Source: Promethearchaeota archaeon (GTDB lineage Archaea > Asgardarchaeota > Hermodarchaeia > Hermodarchaeales > Hermodarchaeaceae). Taken from it: 61,124 nt of DNA. The translations under genes were made by a program, and so were the position numbers. Numbering within the stretch: the stretch's first letter is position 1; each line of letters begins with the position of its first letter. The stretch is from assembly GCA_048938385.1 (NCBI GenBank), contig JBHLMG010000014.1, positions 1 to 61,124 on the forward strand, given 5' to 3'. Below, piece after piece: positions 35,888-61,124 of the stretch. A model generated the notes under the pieces. It was not told the DNA's origin. It was given only the letters and a program-made list of their open reading frames with translations, and ran no database searches.

Positions 35888-35945
35888 GATGGGGACCTAC
35901 CCATCCCCACAGTAATCATTGTTTGTAGCAAACAGTGGTAATTTG

Positions 35946-43117: not shown

Positions 43118-43154
43118 CGTCACAGTTTTGTAAGAGCATAAGTATAGAACCCGC

Positions 43155-45676: not shown

Positions 45677-45862
45677 CGGCAGCTACCCAAAGTTTTCTCT
45701 TATTTATTCTCATACGGTAAAAATTCAACGGGTCACCTACACTCAGTACGATTGATAGAGTATAACACCTAAACCGTCACGATGGTCACCACACAAAGTG
45801 AGGATGCCGCTTTCATAATTCAGAAAAACGGGGGTTTTTCAGTTTAGAAAGGAGGGAAAATT

Positions 45863-46234
45863 TTGGGTAAGTCTAGAACCCCCAAGGTTACACTGTATGT
45901 CAGCTCATTTAAAATTTCAGAAGGCTACTATGTTGACCGCGAGAGTGCTGTCCATGCTTGCGCGAAGGCAGGATCGAAGCCCTTTGAGAGCCTAAAAGGA
46001 ACATCCCAATTATTTGGTCGCGTTTTCTCAGACAAAGATTGGTACGCAATAACTCTTGCTCAAAGTTGCCACACCACGCAAGGCATCGATATTGAAATCA
46101 TTGACTTCTCAGAGAGCTTTTGGCAACGATTGAAGCTGCGTCGTCAAGGCATTAAGCACACCCCACAATTCGTAGTCGACGACCAACAGCTCCCACCGAT
46201 TACCAGCATCGCAGACTTACAAGGCTACCTTTAG
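45863..46234 (+). CDS. Hypothetical protein with thioredoxin/glutaredoxin-like C-terminus
   Basis: GIKHTPQFVVD cis-Pro-like motif; divergent from the Lrp gene. Confidence 0.55.
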   Translation: MGKSRTPKVTLYVSSFKISEGYYVDRESAVHACAKAGSKPFESLKGTSQLFGRVFSDKDWYAITLAQSCHTTQGIDIEIIDFSESFWQRLKLRRQGIKHTPQFVVDDQQLPPITSIADLQGYL

Positions 46235-46370
46235 ACTTGATCAACATTGTACCAAAATCTCATCACAGTTAATCGATTCTTAGAGCCTAACAGGTTTGAG
46301 AAGAGGACGCACTCCCCAAGATGGATATGACCAAAGGCTCAAATTTGATGATTGCGCAGGTCATGGCAGA

Positions 46371-47450: not shown

Positions 47451-47458
47451 ACGAGAAA

Positions 47459-47547
47459 TTATTCCTCGAAATTTTTGAATCACTGGTGTGGTCTTATCAA
47501 GGCGATTATGACCTTCAACGAGTATCCATTTGCTTGTTTATCACACG
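47459..47547 (-). repeat. Degenerate copy of hydrogenase 3'-end repeat
   Basis: Translates (with frameshifts) to INKQM...HNRLDKTTPVIQNFEE*. Confidence 0.65.
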
Positions 47548-47555
47548 AGTTTAAT

Positions 47556-48161
47556 TCAAATTTCAGGTTTTATTGAGCCCCAAGGTTTTCCGTATTTTCC
47601 ATCGAATGCAATTTCGTCTAAAGCCTTTCGGGGACGAGCTGGAGGATGTTCATCAGGTACCCCAAGCGCTACTAATACGACGAGATCGACATCCTCAGGG
47701 ATGTCAAGTTGTTTTTTGACTTGTTGGATGAATTCAACCGATCGCGATTCATAGGTGGCAATCCAGCAAGTACCATACCCCAGTGCCGTTGCCGCTAAAA
47801 CGAGATGGTCGGCTGCTATCATCGGGTCTTGGAGATGCCATCGAGCCTGGTTTCCTGGACAGCATGCGTTCTCCCGTTTTCCCAAAACAACAATAATGGC
47901 ATTTGCATTCGCAATGAATCGTTGCTGTGAAGGTTGCGCTAAGAGCTGTATGGTTTGAGGATCTCTTACGACGATGAATCGCCAGGATTGGCTGTTATTC
48001 GTCGATGGGGCAAGTTGCGCTGCTTGAAGGATTTTTTCTAAATCAGAATCCGGAACAGCATAAGGTTTGTAGCGCCGGATACTACGCCGTTTTTGCAAGA
48101 CCTCGAAGAAATTCTTTGTTGGTTCAAGAATGGAATTATTCGATGATGTTTGTTTCACCAT
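47556..48161 (-). CDS. Nitroreductase family protein
   Basis: RRSIR, APSTNNSQSWRF, GYGTCWI. Confidence 0.92.
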   Translation of the reverse strand: MVKQTSSNNSILEPTKNFFEVLQKRRSIRRYKPYAVPDSDLEKILQAAQLAPSTNNSQSWRFIVVRDPQTIQLLAQPSQQRFIANANAIIVVLGKRENACCPGNQARWHLQDPMIAADHLVLAATALGYGTCWIATYESRSVEFIQQVKKQLDIPEDVDLVVLVALGVPDEHPPARPRKALDEIAFDGKYGKPWGSIKPEI

Positions 48162-48327
48162 GGCTATTTCTCACACTCCACGGTTTAACGCTCCCACTGC
48201 TGCATATTGTATGCATGTTTGGGCAAGGAGAGACAGGTGGCCGCGTCTATTAACTAAGGCTTTAACCGTTGAACGAGTTGGTTCTTTTTTCATCATTTTC
48301 ATCCCTCTTTTTGATACACAATTTACT

Positions 48328-48954
48328 TTACGCCTTCTCACCAATTGCTACGAAAATACTAATCTGGGCTTTCTCTCCGCCTGTACATGATTCGGAACTA
48401 CATTGCTCCCCTGTTGATTCTACACGAACTTGTTGTAATCCAGTTTCAGCAAACCAGGCGTGGATATCATCCCGTTCAAATCCTAACCACACATCATGTT
48501 GTTCATGGCGGAGAAATTCGAGATCATGCTTGTCTATATCGGTAATAACTAATTTTCCACTGGGTTTTAGGATACGGATCATTTCTCGAAGACCCATTAA
48601 TGGTTGGGGGAGGTGGTGCAGCACCATATTAGCAAAGACATAATCGATTGAATTATCCTCGATCGGTAATTGGAGCACATCGCCTTTCCGGAACTCCACA
48701 TCTTGATTGCCAGCGAATTTTTCGCGCATCACATCGAGCATGGCGCTGGATTGGTCCACCGCGATGACTTGGAGGCCATGCTCAAGCAACCCTGTGGTGA
48801 CATACCCCGTTCCTGCTCCAACATCAGCAGCCAGTTGACCCTTTTTTACGCCCGCGAGGATGAATGCCTTTTCGCGTACGGCAGGTGAAAAAAACATTGA
48901 TTGTAGGTGGTCCCAATCAGGAGCTATATGATCGAAGTAGTCCTTGGCGTTCAT
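48328..48954 (-). CDS. Class I SAM methyltransferase
   Basis: DVGAGTG, NMVLHH, LKPSG, WLGF. Confidence 0.9.
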   Translation of the reverse strand: MNAKDYFDHIAPDWDHLQSMFFSPAVREKAFILAGVKKGQLAADVGAGTGYVTTGLLEHGLQVIAVDQSSAMLDVMREKFAGNQDVEFRKGDVLQLPIEDNSIDYVFANMVLHHLPQPLMGLREMIRILKPSGKLVITDIDKHDLEFLRHEQHDVWLGFERDDIHAWFAETGLQQVRVESTGEQCSSESCTGGEKAQISIFVAIGEKA

Positions 48955-49067
48955 CGAGTTACCCCTTTAATTTTTGAGAGCATGAGTGCTTTGGCAAGGT
49001 AAGTGTTGTAACTCGCCGTTCGAAGCTGGGTCAAGTAAATTTGTTTTCCACATTTACTGCATGCCAT
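48951..49067 (-). CDS. 38-aa CxxC peptide coupled to the methyltransferase
   Basis: MACSKCGKQIYLTQLRTASYNTYLAKALMLSKIKGVTR; ATGA stop/start overlap. Confidence 0.5.
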   Translation of the reverse strand: MACSKCGKQIYLTQLRTASYNTYLAKALMLSKIKGVTR

Positions 49068-49086
49068 TTTTCAGCACCTTTCTATT

Positions 49087-49147
49087 TATTGGATGCCCAA
49101 TACCTATTATTGGGCACCCTATATTTAAATGTATTGGGCACCCTATA
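49087..49147. promoter_or_regulatory. Three palindromic operators TATTGG-N4-CC(A/T)ATA around a TTTAAAT box
   Basis: Sites at 49087-49102, 49108-49123, 49132-49147. Confidence 0.8.
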
Positions 49148-49223
49148 CCTTCACCCTAATTCCGTGAAAACCCCATGTAGAAAAACACGAGCCTGACCCG
49201 CGGTGGCTAAGGACCATCCACAA

Positions 49224-49565
49224 TTAGGTTGAGGGCTTGCGCGCCTCGATAATATCATCGAACACCCGGAAAAAGTACCGTGTGGCCTCATTTAACCCCG
49301 ATCGTCCCTCCTCCGTTAAAGAAAAGATCACTTGCCTCCCCTCTCGTGCCCGGCGAACAAGTTTCTTTTGCGCGAGCTCTTTGAGGGCGGGATATATGGT
49401 GCCAGGAGTGGGTTTGCTACCTCGTCGCAGTCCAATCTGCTCAGCGAGTTCTTGGCCATTCATAGGTTTTTTACTCAGCTCCCAGAGAATCTGAAAGGAC
49501 AGCATACCCCGCATATCGCAGCAGTCAGGAGGGCAGCATTCGTCGGTTTGTTTTTCGTCAGGCAT
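49224..49565 (-). CDS. PadR-family regulator with Cys-rich N-terminus
   Basis: CCPPDCCDMRGML..., PGTIYPALKEL, LTEEG; start reassigned to ATG 49565. Confidence 0.88.
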   Translation of the reverse strand: MPDEKQTDECCPPDCCDMRGMLSFQILWELSKKPMNGQELAEQIGLRRGSKPTPGTIYPALKELAQKKLVRRAREGRQVIFSLTEEGRSGLNEATRYFFRVFDDIIEARKPST

Positions 49566-49571
49566 AGTATT

Positions 49572-49638
49572 TATTGGGCACCCGATACATTTAAATGTGT
49601 TTGTTTCTTTACTCACCCCATATATTGGTCATCCAATA
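49572..49638. promoter_or_regulatory. Two further operators in the padR/arsM divergent promoter
   Basis: TATTGGGCACCCGATA 49572-49587; TATTGGTCATCCAATA 49623-49638. Confidence 0.8.
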
Positions 49639-49653
49639 ATAAAGTGACGCGAA

Positions 49654-50391
49654 ATGACCGAAACGAAACGCATAACCAAAATGAGCGATGAAGAAATTAA
49701 AAAAGAAGTACGAAAAGCCTACACCAAGGTAGCCCAACCTACAAGCTCCTGTTGCGGATCAGGCACCAGGAGCAATTATGCCAAAAACCTAGGGTATTCA
49801 GTGGACGGGCTTCCAGACTCAGTGACCGAATCCTTTGCCGGATGTGGAAATCCCGTAGCTCTCGCAAGCCTGAAAGAAGGCGAGGTCGTGTTGGATTTAG
49901 GTAGCGGTGCAGGGCTGGATGCATTCATGGCAGCCCGCCAAGTTGGACCAACGGGGAGTGTGATCGGTATCGACATGACGCCGGCCATGATTGATAAAGC
50001 GAACGATAACGCTGAAAAACTGGGAGTGAAGAATGTCGAATTTCGGTTTGGCGATATAGAAGCCTTGCCCGTAGATGATGAGTCTGTTGATGTCGTCATT
50101 AGCAATTGTGTCATTAATCTTGCACCCGATAAAGGCAAAGTGTTTGAAGAAGCCTTCCGAGTCCTCCGCTCAGGGGGGCGAATGCTCATTTCTGATATCG
50201 TCTTAGAAGCCTCCCTGCCCCAGAATATCAGGGACGAGGTGGCTTCGTATACTGGCTGTCTTGGTGGCGCAATCCTCAAAGAAGAGTATCTGCAACTCAT
50301 TCGTCACGCCGGATTCACGGATGTGCGTATTGTCAGCGAAGCTTCATTTAACATTGCCACCAGCGCAAAAATCGAAGCCATAAAACCCTAA
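49654..50391 (+). CDS. arsM: Arsenite methyltransferase
   Basis: SCCG, GCGNP, LDLGSGAG.D, ISNCVINL, GCLGGA. Confidence 0.9.
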   Translation: MTETKRITKMSDEEIKKEVRKAYTKVAQPTSSCCGSGTRSNYAKNLGYSVDGLPDSVTESFAGCGNPVALASLKEGEVVLDLGSGAGLDAFMAARQVGPTGSVIGIDMTPAMIDKANDNAEKLGVKNVEFRFGDIEALPVDDESVDVVISNCVINLAPDKGKVFEEAFRVLRSGGRMLISDIVLEASLPQNIRDEVASYTGCLGGAILKEEYLQLIRHAGFTDVRIVSEASFNIATSAKIEAIKP

Positions 50392-50442
50392 TCGCAATTT
50401 CACCCATGACCACCCAATCAAATCTAGAGCAACCATGGCATA

Positions 50443-51024
50443 TTGACAATTCAAAAGTGGGTGATCATCCTGATGAGCAACCAAAGCCAGCAAAAAGAAG
50501 CTTTTGAAAAGAATATGTTCAGCCCGCTCCCCATTGCCTTAGTTGGAGCCCTCGTCAACGATGTGCCCAACTACCTAGTAATCGGATATATTTGCCCCTT
50601 TGATTTTGGACGATACCTGTTCTTCAGTTTATACAAGAAACGGCATACTCGCATTGGCATCCACGAACACCGTACTTTTAGCGTAAATGTACCCTCCAAA
50701 AACCTCATCAAAGAGGTTACTATCTGTGGTAGCAAATCTGGACGCGACATCGATAAAAGCTTGCTTTTCACAGTGTTTTTTGGCGAGCTGAAAACCGCAC
50801 CAATGATTCACCAATGCCCCATCAATATTGAATGTGAAGTCGCAGAAATTTTAGATTACGGACAAAACGACGGCATCATAGGACGCGTCGTCAAATCATA
50901 TGTCAACCCAGAATGCCTCACGGAGGGCAAACTCGATATGCGAAAGGTTCACCCCATCATTTGGGCCACAGGCGGCGACTACAACTACTACGAGCTCGGG
51001 AACCGGATTAGTAACCCGATTTGA
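50443..51024 (+). CDS. Flavin reductase family protein
   Basis: FSVNVP, CGSKSGRDIDK, APMI..CPINIEC. Confidence 0.88.
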   Translation: MTIQKWVIILMSNQSQQKEAFEKNMFSPLPIALVGALVNDVPNYLVIGYICPFDFGRYLFFSLYKKRHTRIGIHEHRTFSVNVPSKNLIKEVTICGSKSGRDIDKSLLFTVFFGELKTAPMIHQCPINIECEVAEILDYGQNDGIIGRVVKSYVNPECLTEGKLDMRKVHPIIWATGGDYNYYELGNRISNPI

Positions 51025-51242
51025 ATCAGGATGCTTTCATCTATAATCCTAACAAAAAAGACAGACTGGCCTACAACAAGAGCAGACCAAAAGGGCTCTA
51101 ATCCGAGAAACAATGAATTGTCAGGGTTCACTCATCTTCGTATTTAAACACTTGAGCCACATTCTCATCACCCCATGACCGAGTCGCACAACAGGCCTAT
51201 GCATAACAGCGCGAACCCCTCATGCACCGCATGCACAGAAGA

Positions 51243-51734
51243 TTAGCGGTTCACCACTAAATAGCGTCCGTATTTTTGTGTTTCATGATAGAGGTATTCA
51301 AAGTTATCCATGTATTCGGGAAAATCAAGTTCTTTACGCAAATCACGGACTATCGGCCAGAGTTTCTCCCACCGTTGTTGGACAACAAATATTTTGTAGG
51401 CAAGTTTGATATCGATGAGGTTGTTCTTTAGCAGAATACCAACGGCCTCGAAAAACGCGGCAACCTGGCGAAACGCAATGTGCATAGGGTGCTCACCGGG
51501 ATAGGGACCATACTTGGCTTGATACTCCGCATAAGTTTGGACATCAAGCATCATGACCTTCACATCGGCTTCTTGAAACTCCTTTGACATGAATGTAGCA
51601 TACAACCGCATGATCAGGTCCGTTTTCCGCATCCGCGCTTGATTTTGGTGATCCTTCACATAGTAGATCACAGCCCCCACTAACCCAATTGACGCAACAA
51701 TCACCGACGCATACGCCACCAGCTCAACTTGCAT
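51243..51734 (-). CDS. DUF4760-like membrane-anchored protein
   Basis: N-terminal TM; FFEAVGIL, NFEYLY. Confidence 0.65.
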   Translation of the reverse strand: MQVELVAYASVIVASIGLVGAVIYYVKDHQNQARMRKTDLIMRLYATFMSKEFQEADVKVMMLDVQTYAEYQAKYGPYPGEHPMHIAFRQVAAFFEAVGILLKNNLIDIKLAYKIFVVQQRWEKLWPIVRDLRKELDFPEYMDNFEYLYHETQKYGRYLVVNR

Positions 51735-52051
51735 ACCCTACACCTAAGTACCTTTTACCATCAAGTGCATCTTAAAAGAGTATAGGACTGATAAAACGCA
51801 CAATCCAAAAGCCGACAATGTGATTAGCTAAATGAAACCTGTGGAAGAATGTTAACTCACGAATTCCTCGTAAAATTTCCATTGAAAATAGAGAGGCGAG
51901 GACTTGGTTCTCCCTCTGTGTTTTTTCGTAAGATCATCAAAGCATCCAAGAATCCAATCTACTTCGGTTGATGGTTGTTTATAAGTGGTAAAATTTCCCA
52001 GTCTGTTACACTTATCTTTAGGTAGCAAACCTAGCTTGGGTTATTGCGAAT

Positions 52052-54592
52052 GTGGCCATGTTGATGGAGGACAAAGCTGAGGCAGCACCGACGCCTCTCA
52101 TAATACGAATAATTGCAGGGTTCAACTGCTTTATTTTCCTACTCATAACCTTCAGTTTACTCAAGCTACTGCTTAACCCAATCCTAATCAGTTTAATAAT
52201 TGATCCAACACTTCTCATAGTGGTAGATGCGATAGTAAACCCGGTTTTAGCGTTATTTGGGCTTCCTTTAACAACGCTGTTAACCTATCCTGTTATCCTA
52301 GGTTTTTCCTACATATGCATTGGAGTGGTAGGGATCGTAATTACAGTAATGATCATTTATCGCAGATCACAGGCTCTGCTACTGGGTAGTATCATCTGTA
52401 CCATCAGTATCAGTGGTAGCATAATAAGCTACATTCTCATTGCGTCTTTTCTTTTCAATCCACTGGAGGAAATTTTTGTATTATTTCGAGCCCTCGTTAA
52501 TGGGTTTTTACCGCTGGTGTTTCTCTCGATTCCTCTTTTTCTCTGGTATTTCAATGAGTATTCTAATACCATCGCTCCGCTTCACCGCTTCATTTTCATC
52601 TGGAATCTTGATGCTGTCAGTTTATTGTGGACAATCTGGATCATTCCAGGACTCGTCGTATTCACCGTCGATACAGTAGTGCTGTTCGGGATTGTTTATA
52701 CAATTGTCGCCATCATCAGCGTAATTAATCTATTATTCCGCCCCCTCATAACCCGCCTGATCATTCAAACAGCCCGATGGGCCCTCGGCTTTTCAATCAC
52801 TTTTATTCTGATTGTTCTTCTCAATTCAGCGATTATTCGCCTTGTTCCGTTGATTACACCCGGCTTCATTGTACTTGGCCTTCCTATGGCGTTTCTCGCT
52901 AGCCTTTGTTTTACGGCAATTAACGCCCTTTATATTGGTATCATAGACTTGGACGATAGTACCTCATTCTTCCAAAACCGAGTATATCATCATCTCTTTA
53001 CCAAGGCGAGTCATCGTGGTGTATCCCAAACACCGGGGCTACTTTGCATCCAAATCGATGGATTAAGTTATCCCGCTTTACAAGAAGCCATTCAACGAGG
53101 TTATATGCCTACGGTCAAGTCGCTGATCGACTCTGGGAATTATAAAGCCATTCAGTGGGATTGCGGGCTTCCCTCAACAACTCCTTGTTGCCTTGCTGGT
53201 ATCATGCATGGTCACAACAATGACATTCCAGGCTTCTGTTGGTATCGGAAAAAAGAGGACCGGTTGCTTGTCTTCAACCGTCCCCGAGATGCAGGAGATA
53301 TCGAGAAGGACCAAACGACTGGAAAAGGTCTGATTCGGGGAGGAACAAGTGTTGGGAATGTCTTCAGTGGCGATGCAGCCTATAGCTTCTTTACCATGGC
53401 CAAACTCACTAAACAAGATGCTCAAACCAGTAAGCACCGCCGCGAAGACCTCTACTATTATCTTCTCCACCCTTACGCACTCATGCGAACAATAGTCCTA
53501 ACTTTTTGGGACGTGATTATGGCTTGTACACATCTGGTTAAATGGTGGATATTCCATCGAAAACCACGAATGGTCCAACCTCGAAGAAATTACATTTTTT
53601 ATCGACCGGGCACCAACATACTACTGCGAGATATTGTCACGAATATTGTCAGTCTGAACATCTCTCGAGGGTCCCCCGCAATTTATGCCACCTACTATGG
53701 CTATGATGAGATTGCCCATTATGCGGGAACATTCTCAACCACCGCGTTCAGGGCGTTATCTGGCATCGACAAGCAGGTTCGTCGCCTCTTGTATGTCATC
53801 CGAAAATATGCTCCCCGACCTTACGAGTTCTTTATGCTGGCGGATCATGGCCAATCTTTTGGCTTGACCTTTCGACAACGGTATCGTCATTCACTCCAAG
53901 ATACAATTTTCAACCTATTAGGAGGGAAGGCACGAGTCAGCGAAATCGATAGCCATGAACTCCCTGATACATTTGTCGGAGGGCTCATTGCTGATTTCAA
54001 AGAATCAAACTATAATGTAACAATACCTCACCAAGGGGACATTGAAGGCGAAAAAACCGTGGATCATTCAGAGATGTCGCAGCTTACAGATGATGTCATC
54101 GTCTGTCCATCAGGTAATCTTGCTCACATCTATTTCACGCATAAAGTGGGGCGTGTCACCTTAGAAGAGCTAGAGGCAAAATACCCAGGGTTCCTAACTC
54201 GTCTTGTCGCACATGAAGGAATTGGCTTCGTCATCGTGACGGACGCTGATGATGGTCCTGTTCTCCTTGGGGAAGAAGGCGCAGTCATTCTGCGTACTGG
54301 CCTTGTCCGAGGTGCGAACCCCCTTACCGCTTATGGGAAAGAAGATTTACGAATCCAACAGCTCCAGCGCCTTGCTGAGTTTCCTAGTAGCGGCGACCTT
54401 ATTTTAAACAGTCAAATTTATTCGGATGGCACAGTAGCTGCATTTGAGGAACTCGTTGGGAGTCATGGTGGACTCGGGGGATTACAGACTGCTCCTTTTC
54501 TTTTGCATCCTGCTGAAATCGAAGTGGATAGAGCCCGCCTAGTGGATTCTGATCAGCTTTATCCGCTTCTTAATCAACGACGCGCTCCTTGA
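52052..54592 (+). CDS. Membrane (holin-like) domain fused to alkaline-phosphatase-superfamily domain
   Basis: Multi-TM N-terminus; QIDGL, YDEIAH, ADHGQ, AAFEELVGSHGGLGG. Confidence 0.8.
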   Translation: MAMLMEDKAEAAPTPLIIRIIAGFNCFIFLLITFSLLKLLLNPILISLIIDPTLLIVVDAIVNPVLALFGLPLTTLLTYPVILGFSYICIGVVGIVITVMIIYRRSQALLLGSIICTISISGSIISYILIASFLFNPLEEIFVLFRALVNGFLPLVFLSIPLFLWYFNEYSNTIAPLHRFIFIWNLDAVSLLWTIWIIPGLVVFTVDTVVLFGIVYTIVAIISVINLLFRPLITRLIIQTARWALGFSITFILIVLLNSAIIRLVPLITPGFIVLGLPMAFLASLCFTAINALYIGIIDLDDSTSFFQNRVYHHLFTKASHRGVSQTPGLLCIQIDGLSYPALQEAIQRGYMPTVKSLIDSGNYKAIQWDCGLPSTTPCCLAGIMHGHNNDIPGFCWYRKKEDRLLVFNRPRDAGDIEKDQTTGKGLIRGGTSVGNVFSGDAAYSFFTMAKLTKQDAQTSKHRREDLYYYLLHPYALMRTIVLTFWDVIMACTHLVKWWIFHRKPRMVQPRRNYIFYRPGTNILLRDIVTNIVSLNISRGSPAIYATYYGYDEIAHYAGTFSTTAFRALSGIDKQVRRLLYVIRKYAPRPYEFFMLADHGQSFGLTFRQRYRHSLQDTIFNLLGGKARVSEIDSHELPDTFVGGLIADFKESNYNVTIPHQGDIEGEKTVDHSEMSQLTDDVIVCPSGNLAHIYFTHKVGRVTLEELEAKYPGFLTRLVAHEGIGFVIVTDADDGPVLLGEEGAVILRTGLVRGANPLTAYGKEDLRIQQLQRLAEFPSSGDLILNSQIYSDGTVAAFEELVGSHGGLGGLQTAPFLLHPAEIEVDRARLVDSDQLYPLLNQRRAP

Positions 54593-54678
54593 ATATGAAA
54601 ACTGATTAAAACTCAAGAGTACAGACAGCTGATAATCTTAAGGAGTAAAGGTCAAAATCAATACGAGTCTGATCTTTA

Positions 54679-55569
54679 ATGTCATATTGGATTGGGATTC
54701 TCCTTGCAATCTTTTCAGGCATCAGTAGTAATCTTGGGACTTTGGCGCAGAAGAAAGTAGTTAATGATTTGCCAACAGTAGCAAAACAAACAAAATTTCT
54801 TCGCACCCTCGTCAAGACGCCCCTTTGGCTTTTTGGGTTGGCTTTACAGTTTGTAGTTGGAACTATCCTTTTCATGTTAGCTCAGGTCATGATCGGTCCT
54901 GCGTTAATCCCCGGCTTAATGGCGGCGGGATTAATCATCCTCGCAATCGGGTCTGTGAAATTAATTGGGGAATCCCTCAAACTCCCAGAACTACTTGGAT
55001 TACTGATGATTGGATTGGCAATTATTACATTCACCTTTAGTGGATTAGTCATTGACATTCCCGGTTACGACTTTCTAACACTCAGTTTCCTGATAAGAAT
55101 TGGACTATTTACTACTGCCCTGACGGGAATCGTAGTGATTTTTCAAATTCTTCAATGGAAATGGGTTCAGCTTTATGCGATATCCCAAGCAGTCACTTCA
55201 GGATTACTGTTCGCAATCTCGAATTATTGGATTAGCCCCTTGCTGGCAACCTTCGTACATGTGTTTGCTGGTACCTTCATTCTTTCAGAGCTAGGCCTCT
55301 TCAGTATTGCCTCGATAATCCTTATCCTTACCAATATCTTCGGGACCACAACAATACAAAATGCGTTTAAAACAGGACAAGCCAGCTTAATGATTCCAAT
55401 TCAACAGGTACCCATTCAAATCATACCAGGGCTTGTCTATTTACTGGTATTCTTGCTTCCCCTAACTACCATCATTTCCCCAGTATTGTTCGTTATCGGA
55501 ATCATCTTGATCATCGTCGGCTCGTACCTCTTAGCCAAACGTCAACTCGTGCTCGAAGCAATTGAATAG
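54679..55569 (+). CDS. DMT-superfamily membrane protein
   Basis: About 9 TM; LAQKK..., PLWLFG. Confidence 0.7.
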   Translation: MSYWIGILLAIFSGISSNLGTLAQKKVVNDLPTVAKQTKFLRTLVKTPLWLFGLALQFVVGTILFMLAQVMIGPALIPGLMAAGLIILAIGSVKLIGESLKLPELLGLLMIGLAIITFTFSGLVIDIPGYDFLTLSFLIRIGLFTTALTGIVVIFQILQWKWVQLYAISQAVTSGLLFAISNYWISPLLATFVHVFAGTFILSELGLFSIASIILILTNIFGTTTIQNAFKTGQASLMIPIQQVPIQIIPGLVYLLVFLLPLTTIISPVLFVIGIILIIVGSYLLAKRQLVLEAIE

Positions 55570-55687
55570 TCGACAAAACGATTACCATGATTCTAAATCG
55601 TGCGCAGCACCTGCAAATTCAGAAGATGAGAAAAGAATAACATCGTCTAATCCAAAACCCAAAACGGTCTTCGATTAACAACTAAGC

Positions 55688-55783
55688 CTATTCTTGGAAG
55701 TTCTGAATCACCTGCGTCGTCTCACCCAAGTGATTCTTCACCGTCATACACAATATCATGTTCCCACTCATGGTGTGCATGGC
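55688..55783 (-). repeat. Hydrogenase 3'-end repeat copy
   Basis: In frame: AMHTMSGNMILCMTVKNHLGETTQVIQNFQE*. Confidence 0.85.
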
Positions 55784-55836
55784 AATCGTCTTCAGAAAAA
55801 TATTAAGACAACAGTCAAGAAAGCCACTTCAGAGGG

Positions 55837-56202
55837 ATGAATTTGCAGGAAAAGGACGCCATATCCTCTAGAAAAATCATTGGATTAGTTTTTGGTTATA
55901 TGGGGAGCTTTGAAGCATTTCTCGCATCCATCAACTTCTACCTCATGCCTGGCTGGATGTACTACCCGCTCATCCTCCCTATCAGCATCCCTTCCCTTTT
56001 GATCTTCTTCATCAGTACGACGCTAATCTTCAAAGCCCCCCAACCTGCAGGCTGCTTCCTCCTCGTAGGAAGCCTTGCCAGTGCCACGCTCACCCTCCTT
56101 TTCCCCTTCAGAATCCAAGGTCTCGGACTTGAACTCCTCATGGCAGCCCTCCTCGCTGGTATCGGAGGTACCGCAGCGCTACTCACAGGACGAACCAAAT
56201 GA
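55837..56202 (+). CDS. Hypothetical membrane protein
   Basis: 4 hydrophobic segments. Confidence 0.7.
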   Translation: MNLQEKDAISSRKIIGLVFGYMGSFEAFLASINFYLMPGWMYYPLILPISIPSLLIFFISTTLIFKAPQPAGCFLLVGSLASATLTLLFPFRIQGLGLELLMAALLAGIGGTAALLTGRTK

Positions 56203-56232
56203 TGGACACTAATTTTCAAAGGTCTGCAGCAG

Positions 56233-57084
56233 TTAACTAAATGCAACAGACCAAATCGCTTGTATTTCAGATTCAGTCAGCTGTCGTTGGGTTTTCGTTT
56301 GCTCATCGATGACTGTGACATTCACTTCACCGGGTTTCCGAGTTTTATCACGGAGAAGAGATTTCACGACCAGTGCCAGGGCTTGTTTAAAAGGTAAATC
56401 TGGTTTGACTCCTACCTTCAACAGCTCCTTAGCTGCTTTGCGATGTTGCCCCTCAGCCCAGGCGAGAACCTCCCGATAGGTGCCACTAGGATCCAGCACA
56501 AACAGGTGACTTCCCGTATCGTCAACGCCCCCAAGCAATGTCACGATTCCTAAGGGTCGACTTTCTTTTTTCGTCGTATACGAATGGATGAACAACGCCA
56601 ACTGGTTAGCTAGCTCTTCAACGAAAATTGGTGCCTTGGTCTCTGCTTTAAAGGCGTTCGCAAGGGAAATCGCATGATTCTTCAACAAATTAAAATCACC
56701 CGATAATCCCGTGGGCACCATCCCGATGTGATTGACAACCCGATAATTTTCCCAGGGATGATGGACCACGAAGGACAGGTCATCGTTCGCAGCCTCGCGA
56801 ACCCGCTCTTTGGCGAGGATAACCCCCTTATCATATCGCAGCCCCACAATCGTGACCCCCCGCGGTGGGGATTCCATGGCGTACTCGATTTGGAAGATGC
56901 GCCCATCCGGGGAAAACAGCGTGGTATCATCGTAGCCGCTGGGCATCCGAATCGGCAGGGTTTCAAAGTACCGGATTAGGGCGGCACGGATGAGTTCGGC
57001 TTTACTGCTGAACATGCCTTTCTGGACGACGGTGTCCATGAACCGGTCCAGTTCGGTGGAAACGACGACGCGTACTTCAGGCAT
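56233..57084 (-). CDS. RHH domain fused to a proteasome alpha-like subunit
   Basis: GMFSSKAELIRAAL RHH, then YDDTTLFSPDGRIFQIEYA, RPLG, LDPSG; GGAGG SD before ATG 57084. Confidence 0.85.
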   Translation of the reverse strand: MPEVRVVVSTELDRFMDTVVQKGMFSSKAELIRAALIRYFETLPIRMPSGYDDTTLFSPDGRIFQIEYAMESPPRGVTIVGLRYDKGVILAKERVREAANDDLSFVVHHPWENYRVVNHIGMVPTGLSGDFNLLKNHAISLANAFKAETKAPIFVEELANQLALFIHSYTTKKESRPLGIVTLLGGVDDTGSHLFVLDPSGTYREVLAWAEGQHRKAAKELLKVGVKPDLPFKQALALVVKSLLRDKTRKPGEVNVTVIDEQTKTQRQLTESEIQAIWSVAFS

Positions 57085-57163
57085 CCATAAAACCTCCAGA
57101 AAAATGGATATATAGCGGATAATATAAGTGTACCGCGGTAAACGGAGCAAAGGGAGCGACACC

Positions 57164-57280
57164 GTGAAGAAAATCAGCCTCCCCGAACCCAGCTACTGGA
57201 AACTCGTCGAGCTGAAAGCCAAGCTACGATGCGCCACTTGGAAAGAACTCATCGACACCCTCTACCAGAGGCTGGCGTAA
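57164..57280 (+). CDS. 38-aa RHH-like protein (absent from ORF track)
   Basis: MKKISLPEPSYWKLVELKAKLRCATWKELIDTLYQRLA; GGAG upstream; divergent from the proteasome-like gene. Confidence 0.55.
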   Translation: MKKISLPEPSYWKLVELKAKLRCATWKELIDTLYQRLA

Positions 57281-57300
57281 CAACGACTAGCAAAAAGGAA

Positions 57301-57407
57301 CTAATCCTCGAAGTTCTGAATCGCCTGCGTTTTCTCACCAAGATTATTGAGCATTTAATTTGCATCGCCATCTGTCCGTTAACCGCGTGAACTGCACAGG
57401 AAAGACA
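57301..57407 (-). repeat. Hydrogenase 3'-end repeat copy (full length, 1-nt deletion)
   Basis: CLSCAVHAVNGQMAMQI/MLNNLGEKTQAIQNFED*. Confidence 0.88.
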
Positions 57408-57459
57408 TCTTATTCAAGTGAATTCTCTAGCATCTTTAAAATGGGAATTTGTTTGCGAG

Positions 57460-59205
57460 TCACTCCCAGTCAGTGGAAGGAGTCGTTCCAAGTGGAAGAG
57501 GCTTGCCAGGTGTTGCAGGTGAATAGCGGAGTCCATTCCACAGAAAGTCAAAGGCAAAGACGAAGAACAACAAGAGCGTGCCAGGTATGAAGAGGACCAG
57601 AGGATTCGTAAAGAAAACACCACCGAACAGGAGGTCTTGAACCACCCAGCCGAGGTTCCACGAGAAACCGAATCCCAGGAATCCCGCCACAAAGGCGATT
57701 GCTCCACCCACCAAACAGTAAAGGACAAACAAGGGAATCAAGGACTTAGCCCATTCGCGTGGTATACTGGCACTCTTCCCAAGATTCGAGTTGCTGATTT
57801 TCCGGATTACTCCGGCTGAAAGGAGTACACCTACTATGAAAGTCATTCGTCCAAAAGTGCTGATGTAGAGGGCTGGAACCACGGGTAAAATGCACAAGGT
57901 GAGCACGATGACTGAAAATGGGAAGGCTAGCAGATAGTTGAGGGGCCAGGAAAGCTTGGTTCGAAGGGCATAGTACGCCCCTAACCCGATGAGCCCTCCA
58001 ACCACCGTGGCGATGAGGCTAATCTGTACGCTCTCCATGAGCAGAGGAAGCAGGCTCATTAACGAGTATTCCAGGGGAGCAGACCGGGGCCAGGGTTGCG
58101 CGGTAAAGGAGAACTGTCCGGCGATAGCTAATGCGACGAGGCTGCAGACGAGGACGATGCCAACAATGATGTGGGGTCGGTGAAGCGTTGATTTTTCTGG
58201 TGGGATCACCTGTTGTCCGTGGAGTTCGACTGGGTTCCGGTAGATAGTCCATCGCAGGATCCCTTCGAGGAGGATGGCAGCTAATCCAAAGGTAAGAATG
58301 TAGGTCACAAGAATCGCCAAGAGTCCTGGGAAATTCATCATGAAAATATAGGCTAAAAGTGCTCGCCCAATCCCATACCAGTTGTAGTAGATTTCAACGG
58401 GGACGGAAATGGAAACCGTCCAAACCAGCAATCGTGGAAGACCGTGGGAGAGCGGTGGCAGCTCATCACCGGGTGGTTGATAGAAGTAGTGCGTTGCCAC
58501 CGCGACAGAAAGGAGGGTAGTGAGCGTTGCTGGTGCAATGAGGTGCCAGCCACGATCTAGCAGTCCTGCAAGTGGATTCAAGGGGAGAGGAAAGCTATAG
58601 GTGCCCCCGAGCGGGAGTAAGCCGAGGAGACCTAACTGGAGAGCCCCCCAGAAAAAGGCGAAGGCAAGCAGTATCCACAGAAATTTTGAGAACACGATGT
58701 TGTACAGGTGTCGTTTCATCCCGTCGAGTGGGGTTGTCGCTCTGCGCCGAAACCAATAGAACACGACGAAAATAAATGACACGATGAGGAACGGTATAAG
58801 GACTAGCAGTAGGGTATTCGGGAACTGAGCACTGATTGGCTCTCCGACGGGACGGTAGCCTTCAATAAAAGAAGCAGTTTGCAAAAGCCGTCCTGAAAAG
58901 ATGTTGAAGAGAAAAATCCCGTATTGGATCGGTAAGGGGGAGTCGAATCCCCAGAGCGCCCTGATGAAAGCAGACAGCTCCTGCTGGTTTGCAGCCATGC
59001 TTCCTGAAATAAACAGCGCGATGGAATCACCCGGGACAATGCGCCAGTAGTAAAACAAGATGCTCGCCACGATGAACAGCACGAAGGCCGGCTTCACCAC
59101 CAAGTCAACAACCACCATCCATGTCGTGCGCTTTGTCCATTTCACCTGCGGCTCAATCAAAGACGAGTCTTCCATCAACGGTTCTTCTGATTCCAAACCA
59201 TCCAT
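57460..59205 (-). CDS. Peptide ABC permease-like protein (DppB-like N-half plus degenerate second permease)
   Basis: PGD, WGFDSPLPIQY, FPNTLLL, VEIYYNWYGIG. Confidence 0.75.
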   Translation of the reverse strand: MDGLESEEPLMEDSSLIEPQVKWTKRTTWMVVVDLVVKPAFVLFIVASILFYYWRIVPGDSIALFISGSMAANQQELSAFIRALWGFDSPLPIQYGIFLFNIFSGRLLQTASFIEGYRPVGEPISAQFPNTLLLVLIPFLIVSFIFVVFYWFRRRATTPLDGMKRHLYNIVFSKFLWILLAFAFFWGALQLGLLGLLPLGGTYSFPLPLNPLAGLLDRGWHLIAPATLTTLLSVAVATHYFYQPPGDELPPLSHGLPRLLVWTVSISVPVEIYYNWYGIGRALLAYIFMMNFPGLLAILVTYILTFGLAAILLEGILRWTIYRNPVELHGQQVIPPEKSTLHRPHIIVGIVLVCSLVALAIAGQFSFTAQPWPRSAPLEYSLMSLLPLLMESVQISLIATVVGGLIGLGAYYALRTKLSWPLNYLLAFPFSVIVLTLCILPVVPALYISTFGRMTFIVGVLLSAGVIRKISNSNLGKSASIPREWAKSLIPLFVLYCLVGGAIAFVAGFLGFGFSWNLGWVVQDLLFGGVFFTNPLVLFIPGTLLLFFVFAFDFLWNGLRYSPATPGKPLPLGTTPSTDWE

Positions 59206-59266
59206 CGTGAAAGGAAATCCCTCCGCGGGGTACTCAAAAATTCACTAATTTTAACTTATCGAGAAC

Positions 59267-59373
59267 TTATTCCTTGAAGTTCTGCAGCCCCTGCGTCGTC
59301 TCACCCAGATGGTTACGACCTCAATGCGCGTCGCCATGTGCCTATTCACAGCGTACACAGCACAAGAAAGACA
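59267..59373 (-). repeat. Hydrogenase 3'-end repeat copy (full length, 1-nt deletion)
   Basis: CLSCAVYAVNRHMATRIE/RNHLGETTQGLQNFKE*. Confidence 0.88.
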
Positions 59374-59467
59374 ATGCTCCCAAGGTTTAAAGCCAATAGT
59401 TGGTCTCTTCTAGCGGGTGGAGGGTGATGATGAACATCTTCCACAAATATCTAGGGATTGTGATGCT

Positions 59468-60661
59468 ATGGAGGCGGAGTGCTGGAACTGCGGTGCACCC
59501 GTCAAGCTAGACGAGGATCAGTTCTGTCCACAGTGCGGGGTCCAACTCCCCCGGTTCGTTATTAAAATCAAGTTGTGTGAAACTACTCATCCAACACCAC
59601 GATTCCATCCTGATCCTCTCAAACGCTTGGAAGGAGCAATGGCTACCCGGTTTCGTGAATTCCTCATCAAAGAAATCGCCCTACTCCCTGATGAAGCACT
59701 CCCCATTTCCGAACCATACCTACCACCTGTAATCCCCGCACCTCCACGAATAATACCAATACCGCCAACTGAGCCCCTTCCTCCAGGTACACCGTTGGCT
59801 GGCATGATTCACCACGCTTACATCATAGACGCGAGGGGCGAATTCGTGGTTAACGAAGAATTCTGGAACATTACAGTTGAAGAGGCTTGGATTACAGACT
59901 TTGCTGAGTGTGTTAAAGATGCCCAAGACACCCTCATCGAGGAAATTAACGGCACAAAGCTCATCGGGAAGCCCTTGGGTCGAGGGATAGTTGTCTTGAG
60001 TGCTGACAGTGCTGCAGGTGACGCCACGCTCCGCGAAAAACTCGACCGCGTCACCTACGAGTTCCGCCGCGTCATCAGCCACGAAATTGCATACGACGAC
60101 TTCATTGATAGAGTCGATGACTATGTCACCACCACATGCAAAATCAGCATCATCGGCTATGGTGGCGTCGGCAAAACCGACATCGTCACCCTCCTCAATG
60201 GCGGTGTCCCACCAACTGAGTATACACCTACGATTGCTATTGACATCCAGAGAATCGAAGATTTTCGCATCGGTACATTAGAAATCTCTACTTGGGATTT
60301 CCCTAGCCTAGCTCGGTTCCGAAAACTCTGGGAACTCTACTTCCGAGGTAGCCGAATCATCCTCCTCGTCACCGATTCGACGCTAGAAAATGTGCAGAAG
60401 AGCAAAAACATCATCGACTTCATACGCCGTAAAAACATTGCAGCCCAAGTCTTAGCCATTGCCTACAGACAAGATCGGCCAGGGGCTTTATCTCTCAATC
60501 TCGTGCAACGCTTTCTTGGCATCAAAGCACTGGGACTTACCGAAGGCGAAGTGAGATCCGGAGACCCAGCCACCGCCATGAAAATCATCACAGAAGCGAT
60601 GAAACTCGCTGCACCTAAAAAAGAACCAGAGACACCAAAGCCTGAAATGGTGTTTGATTAG
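59468..60661 (+). CDS. Zinc ribbon plus Ras/Arf-like small GTPase domain protein
   Basis: CWNC..CPQC; G1 GYGGVGKT, G2 YTPTI, WDFPS, AYRQD. Confidence 0.85.
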   Translation: MEAECWNCGAPVKLDEDQFCPQCGVQLPRFVIKIKLCETTHPTPRFHPDPLKRLEGAMATRFREFLIKEIALLPDEALPISEPYLPPVIPAPPRIIPIPPTEPLPPGTPLAGMIHHAYIIDARGEFVVNEEFWNITVEEAWITDFAECVKDAQDTLIEEINGTKLIGKPLGRGIVVLSADSAAGDATLREKLDRVTYEFRRVISHEIAYDDFIDRVDDYVTTTCKISIIGYGGVGKTDIVTLLNGGVPPTEYTPTIAIDIQRIEDFRIGTLEISTWDFPSLARFRKLWELYFRGSRIILLVTDSTLENVQKSKNIIDFIRRKNIAAQVLAIAYRQDRPGALSLNLVQRFLGIKALGLTEGEVRSGDPATAMKIITEAMKLAAPKKEPETPKPEMVFD

Positions 60662-60670
60662 ACCCTGAGG

Positions 60671-60765
60671 CTATTCTTGGAAGTTCTGAATCACCTGCGT
60701 CGTCTCACCTAGATGGTTCAGCACCTTGATATGCATTGCCAACTTCATTCACAGTTGAAGGCACA
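60671..60765 (-). repeat. Hydrogenase 3'-end repeat copy
   Basis: LAMHIKVLNHLGETTQVIQNFQE*; first 39 nt identical to the copy at 55688. Confidence 0.88.
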
Positions 60766-60948
60766 TCAAGGCTTGGGACCAAAGAGATTCGGAAAATACA
60801 CCGCTTTCCGTGTTATCTTCACAGAACATGTCCCCGTTGCACGACACCAATCTTCACAATCCTGCGCCGTTTTCTGATCCAAATACCCCAACCCACACAC
60901 CTCACATACATACAGCCCTTGCCCTTTTACCATCTTCTGCTTCACCAT
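60766..60948 (-). CDS. Small zinc-finger protein
   Basis: YVCEVCGLGY...AQDCEDWC...CSVKITRKAV; GGTGA SD. Confidence 0.75.
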   Translation of the reverse strand: MVKQKMVKGQGLYVCEVCGLGYLDQKTAQDCEDWCRATGTCSVKITRKAVYFPNLFGPKP

Positions 60949-61052
60949 TTACATCACCTAATTAACAACACCTACACCAAAACACCATCTAGCACAATAA
61001 ATGCATTCGTAACAAACGAAGCGAACAACCGACCCTACACCAGCCCGAATAA

Positions 61053-61124
61053 TTATTCTACGAAGTTCTGAATGACTTGCGTCATCTCACCGAGGTGATT
61101 CAACACTTTAATCCGCATCGCCAT
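61053..61124 (-). CDS. Probable 3' end of a [NiFe]-hydrogenase large subunit gene (or a further repeat copy), truncated by the window edge
   Basis: Uninterrupted MAMRIKVLNHLGEMTQVIQNFVE*; longer copies link this tail to CLSCAVH. Confidence 0.55.
   Translation of the reverse strand: MAMRIKVLNHLGEMTQVIQNFVE

Follow-up and report, generated by a model that had tools for sequence, protein, structure and literature searches.

What process leaves several partial copies of the 3' end of one metabolic gene in a row, with small and diverse genes between them? The question is raised by contig JBHLMG010000014.1 (C5; 61,124 nt) of a Hermodarchaeota MAG (GCA_048938385.1), the whole of which was analysed and is referred to here as the window. 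A first-pass annotation of this DNA had proposed an integron-like gene-capture locus between 47459 and 61124, with a hydrogenase gene as attachment site. The comparison set comprised 15 genomes of the genus and four of a sister genus (19 in all), all of them incomplete MAGs (72-91%). Variation within populations was assessed from assembled metagenome contigs (Logan; X1 and X2), not from raw reads.

Results

Copies of a hydrogenase gene tail

The repeat, termed T, is about 108 nt long and comprises the last 36 codons of an mvhA/vhuA-like gene, from the first Cys of the C-terminal nickel-binding motif DPCxxCxxH to the stop codon. An nhmmer profile built from intact orthologous hydrogenase tails recovered all six copies reported by the first-pass annotation at the right end of the contig, each in the same orientation on the minus strand and the one at 47459 only weakly.

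T0, 61053-61124, minus strand: last 24 codons, including the stop, of the intact hydrogenase gene; E 2.9e-12, cut by the contig end
T1, 60671-60774, minus strand: 3' 72 nt well kept (..KLAMHIKVLNHLGETTQVIQNFQE*), 5' part degraded; E 1.3e-13
T2, 59266-59380, minus strand: full-length remnant starting at the Cys codon of DPC|LSC, one frameshift; E 8.9e-18
T3, 57300-57407, minus strand: full-length remnant, one frameshift; E 3.4e-20
T4, 55687-55784, minus strand: remnant with intact 3' half; E 1.2e-9
T5, 47457-47531, minus strand: weak, decayed remnant; E 5.6e-4

Despite its weak score T5 is accepted as genuine, because a clear T (E 3e-11 and 3e-12) lies at the syntenic place, after the orthologous nitroreductase gene, in two relatives (G001:C8 and G012:C111). 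On the minus strand the copies translate, as had been claimed, to stop-terminated variants of CLSCAVHAVNGQMAM..NHLGETTQVIQNFxE*, and the frameshifts claimed for some copies were located at 57301 and 59267, one in each. Differences are concentrated at third codon positions, in agreement with the earlier description of many of them as synonymous or conservative; those between T3 and T0 affect 2/34 first, 4/35 second and 16/35 third positions. The 39-nt core that had been quoted for the repeat holds exactly for the copies at 55688 (T4) and 60671 (T1) only, where no match is expected by chance, while the remaining window copies are 63-81% identical. No T was found by blastn and tblastn on any other contig of the 2.48-Mb genome. 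A MITE or other dispersed repeat is thus rejected, since all copies in the genome lie within one locus of C5.

The intact hydrogenase gene

Extension of the contig past 61124, which had been suggested as a check, was possible through contig JBHLKQ010000014.1 (L075). This contig is 100% identical to the window over 55650-61124, links it across 325 nt to C46, another contig of that genome, and shows an intact 474-aa [NiFe]-hydrogenase large subunit ending in ...DPCLSCAVHAVNGQMAMRIKVLNHLGEMTQVIQNFVE*. As L075 connects the window end with the remainder of the gene, T0 at 61053 is the intact gene's own tail. The large subunit contains RMCGIC (N-terminal RxCGxC type) and DPCLSCAVH, the latter followed by 28 more residues, and its best NCBIfam model is VhuA (2.9e-105 for a 342-aa fragment). 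Its operon neighbours are VhuG, HdrA2, HdrB and HdrC by NCBIfam, with FlpD/MvhD called in L075, and mvhA is the last gene of an HdrCB-OFOR-HdrA-MvhD-MvhG-MvhA operon. Judged from its sequence, with nickel ligands, cleavable extension and operon criteria all met, the gene encodes a group 3c MvhA/VhuA-like large subunit, which bears out the MvhA-like identity first proposed for the tail. Orthologues in relatives terminate in the same tail.

Cargo of the island

Although the repeats do occupy the range first described, the variable island of the window reaches further left, from about 31953 to 61052. From right to left it contains the following units, listed here with the first conserved gene of the flank:

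Cassette 1, 60775-61052: 382-bp unit with one 60-aa ORF, 60766-60948 (minus strand), a gene call in L075
Cassette 2, 59468-60661, plus strand: 1404-bp unit; 397-aa protein with a zinc ribbon and an Arf/Roc-type small GTPase (Pfam Arf 1.9e-12, Roc 3e-11)
Cassette 3, 57460-59205, minus strand: 1966-bp unit; 578/581-aa protein of unknown function, family F28
Cassette 4, 55837-57084: 1613-bp unit; 121-aa ORF 55837-56202 (plus strand) and divergent proteasome alpha-like gene 56233-57084 (minus strand), both L075 gene calls
Large unit between T4 and T5, 47556-55569: nine genes
Radical-SAM gene, family F10, 46296-47450, plus strand: directly after T5
Distal variable island, 32181-46295: no recognisable T and no mobility gene
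PhzF-like gene, 31029-32180, minus strand: first conserved flank gene (Pfam PhzC-PhzF 1.1e-54)

Leftward from the PhzF-like gene the window is syntenic with the sister genus (tblastn of the downstream proteins of G018:C78 against the genome). Small units homologous to cassette 1 lie between T copies in G005:C367 and adjoin a T in G014:C34. The GTPase gene of cassette 2, whose stop codon is 10 nt from T1, belongs to a family (F9) with different neighbours in G012:C52, G013:C93 and G004:C83. An F28 homologue with 62% amino acid identity stands between other genes, without flanking T copies, in G012:C36. The proteasome-like ORF of cassette 4 has a longer form reaching 57162 (Pfam Proteasome 2.2e-27) and gives the lowest score among the genome's four proteasome-family loci (97 bits versus 173-188). 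The nine genes between T4 and T5 encode a 296-aa unknown protein, an 842/846-aa phosphodiesterase-like protein, DUF4760, a flavin reductase, an ArsM-like methyltransferase, PadR, a second methyltransferase, an 86-aa ORF and a nitroreductase. In G001:C8 the stretch of genes running from flavin reductase to nitroreductase forms the first cassette behind the intact gene, bordered by T on both sides. The F10 radical-SAM gene is flanked by T copies in G004:C118 and G014:C34. The distal island encodes GNAT acetyltransferases, an alpha/beta hydrolase, an MFS transporter, an ICMT-like methyltransferase, a ferric-reductase-like protein and an AsnC-type regulator, and three of its families (F17, F31 and F42) occur in or beside the arrays of relatives.

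Arrays in related genomes

T arrays were found downstream of the orthologous gene in 12 of the 15 genus genomes and in none of the four sister-genus genomes. Across the compared genomes there are 58 T copies on 24 contigs, with a single shared orientation on any one contig. Wherever the assembly links remnants to the gene they lie downstream of it in the same orientation; the remaining copies sit on short contigs not linked to the hydrogenase gene. Nearly all T copies share a sharp 5' boundary at the Cys codon. Units from T to T (n = 34) measure 321-8229 bp, with a median of 1390 bp, and mostly hold one gene each. The cargo consists of diverse accessory genes in both orientations, many of the single-gene cassettes being convergent with mvhA. 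The island grows from 4.7 kb without T in the sister genus to 18 kb in G006 and 29 kb in the window genome.

All of these genomes are MAGs with contigs that frequently stop at T, so that chance similarity and artefacts of assembly or binning must be weighed. The same structure, however, occurs in independent assemblies from different studies and samples, and arrays are found within long contigs (G011:C46, 65 kb; G006:C25, 27 kb). Together with the genus-wide arrays, the bridging contig L075 and the zero chance expectation for the 39-nt core, these observations effectively refute such a reading, to which we attach virtually no credence.

Rearrangement and breakpoints

Common cassettes are non-colinear between species, and the synteny breaks fall inside T. 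The order is (F49-F50), a 258-aa gene, F9 in G013:C93; F9, (F49-F50), F45 in G004:C83; and F20, F45, two more genes, F9 in G012:C52. Both content and order of the cargo therefore differ downstream of the orthologous gene, a comparison that the first-pass annotation had put forward as a check of its proposal. In one pair (G011:C46 8045-9384 and G013:C412 890-2228) the sequences are 94-97% identical rightwards from inside T, whereas the cargo to the left is unrelated. Breakpoints within T map to profile positions of about 58-102, to 74-77 and, in one case, to the last 9-18 nt. As these do not coincide, a single fixed crossover is not shown, and the scatter is as compatible with homologous recombination or subsequent gene conversion as with a site-specific enzyme.

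The metagenome contigs suggest presence/absence variants of cassettes that break at T. Logan contigs end at 60680-60700, within T1; three independent assemblies break at T4; contig depth in X1 across T4 and T1 is 40.6, 26.1 and 36.2; and one X2 contig lacks precisely the 1404-bp unit with the GTPase. Neither circular nor excised forms were observed, raw reads not being part of the data.

Origin of the tail copies

Compared with the intact tail of their own genome, remnants differ at 0.26 of first, 0.20 of second and 0.51 of third codon positions. Simulated neutral decay passed through the same detection gave 0.30, 0.28 and 0.32. The third-position bias is thus not a product of detection, and we conclude that the remnants derive from functional tails of other lineages. 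A local tandem duplication decaying in place was rejected, as divergence biased to third positions is the opposite of the equal change it predicts. The earlier proposal that each insertion leaves a displaced gene tail is accordingly supported in that remnant tails are present, but these are mostly foreign (xenologous) and not simply the displaced native tail.

Similarity of intact tail and gene body is discordant between genomes: G008 and G012 agree at 0.66 upstream and 0.80 in the tail, and G014 and G005 at 0.78 and 0.62. This discordance, and the coding-type conservation kept in the remnants, would suit T copies serving as silent alternative C-termini for gene conversion of the hydrogenase tail, comparable to silent pilin cassettes, with the genes between them incidental. 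Yet about 47 remnants carry 14 stops and 29 frameshifts, and the cargo and its shuffling remain unexplained. Furthermore, the part of T beyond its first seven residues is the peptide cleaved off in [NiFe]-hydrogenase maturation, so that variation in most of T would be without evident benefit. We regard silent C-termini as highly improbable.

A second possibility is that no dedicated system exists, and that one ancient tail duplication was followed only by host homologous recombination (unequal crossing-over, loop-out and re-insertion, exchange between related cells), with T as portable homology. The differing breakpoint positions in T are in its favour, as are a putative deletion variant between two copies with an identical 39-nt core, the arrays without linked recombinase and a palindrome in T without covariation (see below). 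However, mean identity among T copies is only about 66%, and their identity to the resident tail is 51-89%, which makes them a poor substrate. The sharp 5' boundary and coding-type divergence also require repeated import of tails functional elsewhere, and the acquisition of T by dozens of unrelated cargos is not explained. Homologous recombination as the whole account is therefore doubtful in our judgement.

Recombinases and site structure

A six-frame search of the 19 genomes for integrases and their fragments (PF00589) yielded no hit on any of the array contigs, of which there are about 20, and the absence of an integrase from the window, noted at first pass, is upheld. No recombinase and no replication or structural gene of mobile elements is present among the cargo, and T was not found in IMG/VR. 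The sole tyrosine recombinase locus (PF00589) of the window genome, C26:15750-16694, is Xer-like and unlinked to the array; its score exceeds the cut-off of the XerA model (269.7 bits against 220) but not that of the integron-integrase model TIGR02249 (154.4 bits against 265). This answers the earlier call for a search for an unlinked recombinase; no serine recombinase was found in the genome. The Xer-like gene is conserved in the array-bearing genus, but its association with the array rests on a single genus-versus-genus contrast.

These results bear on the view that the locus consists of the remains of ordinary integrative elements (viruses or plasmids encoding a tyrosine integrase of their own), which integrated serially at an attachment site overlapping the last 108 nt of mvhA and then lost the integrase and most genes, as in tRNA-linked islands. 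Direct repeats of a target 3' end together with an intact target are, by established knowledge, the classic footprint of such elements, as in the tycheposon islands of Prochlorococcus, which arise by tandem accretion at the target gene's 3' end (10.1101/2020.12.28.424599). Additional tyrosine integrases do occur elsewhere in some genus genomes, and G014:C9 carries an 82-aa C-terminal piece of a different hydrogenase paralogue, at a distance of 5.4 kb from an integrase at the contig end. Against this view stand the missing integrases and mobile-element genes, the absence of T from IMG/VR and the very small units (minimum 321 bp), mostly of a single gene. Moreover, decay alone would not be expected to yield small non-colinear cassettes. 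We consider decayed elements a distinctly unlikely source.

In the T consensus GTTGAAT precedes ATTCAGAAC by 30 nt, an order opposite to that of attC. Whole-T folding is no better than that of shuffles (z -1.3 to +1.8). The consensus also holds a palindrome of two 10-nt arms with a 12-nt spacer; in this 12-pair local stem 77.5% of cells pair, and covariation equals that of shuffled controls. No canonical dif was found in the genome with an archaeal dif pattern.

Discussion

The repeats reported at first pass are confirmed, and the interpretation offered with them is supported. Taken together, the results make it probable, although far from settled, that this is a cassette-accretion island at the mvhA 3' end, driven by recombination at T. 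Units of one T and 0.3-4 kb of cargo would recombine with a T already in place, whether that of the gene itself or an internal one, such that the hydrogenase reading frame stays complete throughout and each event leaves one extra T copy downstream. Recombination between T copies would also delete, excise and re-order cassettes, and cassettes whose tails evolved as coding sequence would be swapped among the genus's lineages. As none of the cassettes codes for a recombinase, the reaction would have to be supplied in trans. Host homologous recombination on T has slightly less than an even chance of being that reaction; a site-specific enzyme, with the genus's single Xer-like tyrosine recombinase as candidate, is a real possibility to which we give a little less weight. 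Circular intermediates, insertion direction, crossover point and enzyme are all inferred only, and how new cargo first gains a flanking T is not accounted for by this proposal.

A bolder hypothesis, which we put forward only tentatively and think rather unlikely, is an undescribed archaeal gene-capture system whose site is the exchangeable 3' coding module of an essential gene. Cassettes would bring a working MvhA C-terminus, with nickel ligands and maturation peptide, and a recombinase acting in trans (the Xer-like one specific to the genus, or an unknown enzyme) would cross at DP|C or inside T. If so, selection on hydrogenase function would police the site, because each cassette supplies a working C-terminus.

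Accretion of integrative elements in tandem at a target gene's 3' end is known from tRNA and tmRNA islands; further cases are ICESt1/CIME at the fda 3' end of Streptococcus thermophilus and the ssrA islands of Dehalococcoides. The T array resembles these in repeated integration at one site with older units pushed away from the target gene, in partial copies of the target 3' end through the island beside an intact target, and in units without integrase (CIME-like). Of the criteria for genomic-island accretion, direct 3'-end repeats flanking units with an intact target are thus met; an integrase or its remnants for each element are not. The T array differs in that its target is an archaeal protein-coding hydrogenase gene and its repeat is long (108 nt), in the lack of any integrase or fragment, in units far smaller than typical elements, and in remnants with coding-type divergence, hence functional tails elsewhere.

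Xer-dependent modules (pdif of Acinetobacter plasmids; IMEX) lack a recombinase of their own and are moved by host Xer at short repeated sites. The Xer-like gene as sole tyrosine recombinase of the window genome is a likeness, but no dif-like core of the 11-6-11 kind is recognisable in T, and T copies are direct, in contrast to the inversely oriented sites on either side of pdif modules. That the Xer-like protein acts on T is pure conjecture.

The integron-like character first suggested for the locus stands as an analogy only: there is a cassette array at the hydrogenase 3' end, but the IntI and attC criteria were tested and not met. Archaeal integrons and CALINs have been described by Ghaly et al. 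2022 (PMC9668308). The likeness to integrons lies in small, mostly single-gene, diverse accessory cassettes at a fixed chromosomal point, separated by a repeated site of 60-140 nt in one orientation, in an order that varies between relatives, and without a recombinase in the cassettes. Integrons, however, have IntI, which the window genome lacks (no PF00589 on array contigs; C26 below the TIGR02249 cut-off). Their attC site is an imperfect palindrome (RYYYAAC ... GTTRRRY) that forms a single-strand hairpin, whereas T is a piece of protein-coding sequence with motifs in the order opposite to R''/R' and no covariation. Integron cassettes are mostly promoterless and co-oriented behind a common promoter, whereas T-array cargo runs in both orientations, and the anchor of the T array is the 3' end of a gene for energy metabolism, a gene that has to remain intact.

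Most of the shared cassettes show 57-84% amino acid identity between relatives, a divergence like that of core genes. Much of the array is therefore old, and it may now be largely static.

Repeated hydrogenase gene ends and the intact gene

The window comprises contig C5 in full, one of the 51 contigs of a 2.48-Mb MAG (G000) that is ~90% complete. The first-pass annotation had proposed that same-orientation copies of a [NiFe]-hydrogenase 3' end mark positions 47459-61124 as an integron-like capture locus. These repeats, referred to here as T, are real. A repeat search grouped five copies, at 55689, 57302, 59268, 60672 and 61054, and a nucleotide profile of intact tails from orthologues recovered all five together with a sixth, weak one (47531-47457). 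Read on the minus strand, every copy terminates with a stop codon and translates as a variant of CLSCAVHAVNGQMAM..NHLGETTQVIQNFxE*, with a single frameshift in each of the copies at 57301 and 59267. A 39-nt core matches exactly at 55688 and 60671, where 0 matches are expected by chance. Genome-wide blastn and tblastn searches revealed no comparable repeat on the remaining G000 contigs.

A Pfam NiFeSe_Hases search of the genome located a large-subunit gene truncated at the start of contig C46 (342 residues). Extension of the window beyond 61124 was possible with a second, independent NCBI assembly of this strain: its contig JBHLKQ010000014.1 (L075) matches window 55650-61124 at 100% identity and, past a 325-nt gap, C46 1-5212, also at 100%. 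In L075 the gene (mvhA) is intact and encodes a 474-aa protein with the C-terminus DPCLSCAVH plus a 28-residue extension. Thus, the copy at 61053 is the hydrogenase gene's own 3' end. The operon neighborhood encodes HdrC, HdrB, 2-oxoacid:ferredoxin oxidoreductase, HdrA2, VhuG and VhuA (NCBIfam), MvhD (FlpD) is called in the L075 annotation, and the operon is of the group-3c, Mvh type. T has a sharp 5' limit, at the codon for the first Cys of DPCxxCxxH, and the stop codon that forms its 3' limit follows ~108 nt downstream; one exception, G013:C93:949 in a related genome, retains ~15 extra upstream nt.

Distribution of T arrays

All 19 genomes of the family were subjected to a six-frame profile search followed by nhmmer on the fetched contigs, which identified 58 T copies on 24 contigs. 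Remnants besides the intact tail are present in 12 of the 15 genomes of the genus and in none of the four sister-genus genomes (80-83% complete). T copies on any one contig are uniform in orientation, and in contiguous assemblies the array immediately follows the intact gene (G011:C46, G006:C25, G012:C52, G001:C8, G005:C367 and G008:C37). Orthologues in related genomes carry the identical type of C-terminal tail and many lie at contig ends; it is because of this locus that the mvhA region is broken in most MAGs of the genus. The window becomes syntenic with the sister genus again at 31952, and the variable island spans ~29 kb in this genome, 18 kb in G006 and, with no T, 4.7 kb in G018. The last ~24 nt of G012:C111 (L059) equal the start of G012:C36 (L058), both inside T, and the two contigs probably join into a longer array.

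In other Asgard families, 45%-identical homologues have a different C-terminus, with no tail remnants within 20 kb. The homologues at L023, L024, L026 and L022 (genomes G024, G029, G039 and G023) end in ...KLKLPxPxxxx* when read in the match frame and have no DPCxxCxxH in the last 60 residues; they may represent a different hydrogenase-like class or a frame problem. Scanning JGI metagenomes for a 26-nt T core gave a sole match, a 1.3-kb contig with two T copies. This array fragment from a separate data set (L078, JABAOH010107267.1, 1322 nt) has its copies 816 nt apart. Searches of IMG/VR (viruses) with the T profile and a 17-nt core gave nothing related. Exact cassette proteins, searched for in other contexts, were found only in the same strain's second assembly, which provided no junction variants.

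Cassette units and cargo

The T-to-T units (n = 34) range from 321 to 8229 bp with a median of 1390 bp, and their cargo genes lie in both orientations.

Cargo of the T-delimited cassettes
59468-60661, plus: Arf/Roc-type small GTPase with zinc ribbon, single-gene cassette
56233-57162, minus: divergent fourth proteasome-family gene, alpha-type, between two T copies
48328-51024: block of PadR, ArsM-like methyltransferase, flavin reductase and second methyltransferase
Other cargo:
radical-SAM enzyme
nitroreductase
M28 peptidase
epimerase
FG-GAP protein
many proteins without a Pfam match

In three other genomes, homologues of the zinc-ribbon GTPase (57-70% aa identity) also occur as cassettes. The proteasome-family gene scores 97 bits versus 173-188 for the genome's other three loci, and its ORF runs ~26 codons past the start annotated in the other assembly. 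No recombinase, transposase or replication gene was found among the cargo, and a six-frame search of the 19 genomes gave 0 matches to PF00589 on array contigs, in agreement with the earlier statement that the window lacks an integrase.

Rearrangement and breakpoints within T

Cassette families recur across genomes with different neighbors and in non-colinear order downstream of the hydrogenase gene.

Cassette order in three related genomes, gene-proximal first (F, cassette protein family)
G013:C93: (F49-F50), 258-aa gene, F9
G004:C83: F9, (F49-F50), F45
G012:C52: F20, F45, two genes, F9

A flavin reductase-to-nitroreductase block is the T-flanked first cassette in G001:C8 and lies 10 kb from the gene in the window. 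Since the block at 48328-51024 is the T-flanked first cassette there, what may be a metalloid-methylation module behaves like mobile cargo. Family F28 is T-flanked in the window and unflanked among other genes in G012:C36. Overall, the observation made in the first-pass annotation is confirmed and its interpretation is supported.

The contigs G011:C46 and G013:C412 have 1340 nt in common at 94% identity (96-97% in the first 480 nt), compared with 85% for a conserved paralogous hydrogenase region from this genome pair. This shared stretch begins inside T, and the upstream cargo is unrelated. The pair G011:C46 and G013:C236 shows a second break, at profile position 74-77 of T. Such breakpoints, at differing positions inside T, favor homologous recombination, or later conversion, at T, as does the absence of structural covariation, since no hairpin covariation was detected in T. 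Most other shared cassettes show 57-84% protein identity, comparable to core genes, indicating that much of the array is old. Linkage of the T halves to neighboring cargo amounted to a weak trend only, in which the 3' part tracked the downstream cargo and the extreme 5' part the upstream cargo. Terminal overlaps expected of circular forms were seen in 0 array contigs.

Coding-type divergence of the remnants

Differences between remnants and the intact tail of the same genome are concentrated at third codon positions, as they are between intact tails of different species.

Differing sites by codon position (1st, 2nd, 3rd)
Remnant versus the intact tail of its genome: 0.26, 0.20, 0.51
Intact tails of different species: 0.21, 0.12, 0.56
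Simulated neutral decay: 0.30, 0.28, 0.32

In the simulation, real tails were decayed neutrally (d = 0.32) and passed through the same nhmmer filter; the result lacks such periodicity, and thus the codon periodicity of the remnants is not a detection artefact. For the copy at 57301 the differences are 2/34, 4/35 and 16/35. A rough two-phase Jukes-Cantor estimate assigns ~0.15 substitutions per site to neutral decay and ~0.7 to third-position divergence under coding constraint. A displaced tail of the gene's own lineage would be expected to carry much less of the latter. These sequence patterns indicate that the remnants were functional tails elsewhere. Furthermore, similarity patterns of intact tails conflict with those of the adjacent gene body, indicating that tails, and cassettes with them, moved between lineages.

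The 5' half of T carries roughly double the density of stops and frameshifts seen in its 3' half. Identity among T copies is 0.674 within genomes versus 0.656 between them and gives no clear sign of concerted evolution within a genome. A 'TAG' in T copies after the GTPase cassette was considered as a cargo-linked stop codon; because it is out of frame (AAT AGG CAG) and also occurs in ~7 T copies beside assorted cargos, it was discarded as evidence.

Possible population variation

Logan contigs from four sediment metagenomes of one study (X1-X4), two of which may be the source of this genome, were placed on window 44000-61124. Breaks between contigs fall at 55697-55717 and 60680-60700, within the two T copies that have the 39-nt core in common. 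Contig depths in X1 of 40.6 (44000-55717), 26.1 (55697-60352) and 36.2 (60680-61124) fit the absence of a 4983-bp block of three cassettes from ~1/3 of cells. Additionally, a 107-nt X2 contig (depth 3.4, three mismatches) links 59275 to 60680 and omits exactly the 1404-bp GTPase unit, with the joint within the last 9-18 nt of T. Contig depth in X2-X4 was too uneven for use, and coverage gaps in these runs are not evidence. As these are contigs and not reads, the population result is suggestive only.

Recombination at T and relation to known systems

The data require recurrent recombination at T in which mvhA is kept intact, T copies are added, cassettes are reordered and foreign tails are imported. 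Whether this reflects homologous recombination or conversion, or a site-specific enzyme acting in trans on T, remains open; the latter is favored by the sharp common 5' boundary, the low identity among T copies (mean 0.66) and the absence of a linked integrase. The genome does encode one unlinked tyrosine recombinase, an Xer-like gene at G000:C26:15750-16694 (L066:2754-3695, minus; XerA model, 269.7 bits) that is its only PF00589 locus, and no serine recombinase was found in it. The Xer-like gene is present in 13 of the 14 other genomes of the genus (11 at 71-76% identity, two diverged or partial), was not found in any of the four sister-genus genomes, and is patchy elsewhere in the phylum, where several near-complete Asgard genomes from other families lack it. 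Its link to the arrays rests on one phylogenetic contrast and is no more than a lead. A search for a dif site with a pattern that may be wrong found nothing.

In its working, the locus resembles an integron or CIME/tycheposon-type accretion. Unlike an integron, it has neither IntI nor attC and its gene orientation is mixed, and the integrases of tandem integrative elements are missing from it. Archaeal integrons in Asgard genomes were reported by attC and IntI detection (PMC9668308), and a survey of Asgard mobile elements described integrase-bearing elements with short attachment motifs (PMC11529989); neither describes hydrogenase-tail arrays. A full-text literature search for Hermodarchaeota and hydrogenase likewise returned no report of such arrays.

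Asgard archaea are the nearest prokaryotic relatives of eukaryotes and, to our knowledge, little is known of their gene gain and loss. The locus is a defined hotspot across the genus where accessory genes accumulate and are reshuffled, including eukaryote-like cargo (such as the Arf/Roc-type GTPase and the divergent proteasome alpha subunit), and the repeated junction is part of a core energy-metabolism gene without a linked integrase. If recombination is site-specific, this would be a third route to cassette capture besides integrons and Xer-dependent modules, and T would be a simple sequence tag to find such cassettes in metagenomes.

A separate observation concerns a second hydrogenase paralogue, whose G000 orthologue (G000:C2:129307-130620) encodes 437 aa. 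No intact copy was found in G014, where an isolated 82-aa C-terminal fragment ending in DPCISCSVHYIEVG* (G014:C9:115454-115699; L069:7452-7700, minus) is separated by 5.4 kb from a tyrosine integrase (350 aa) at the contig end and a shorter fragment occurs on another contig (G014:C29:8600-8680, L070). An integrase-bearing element in this genus may use a further hydrogenase 3' end as its target.
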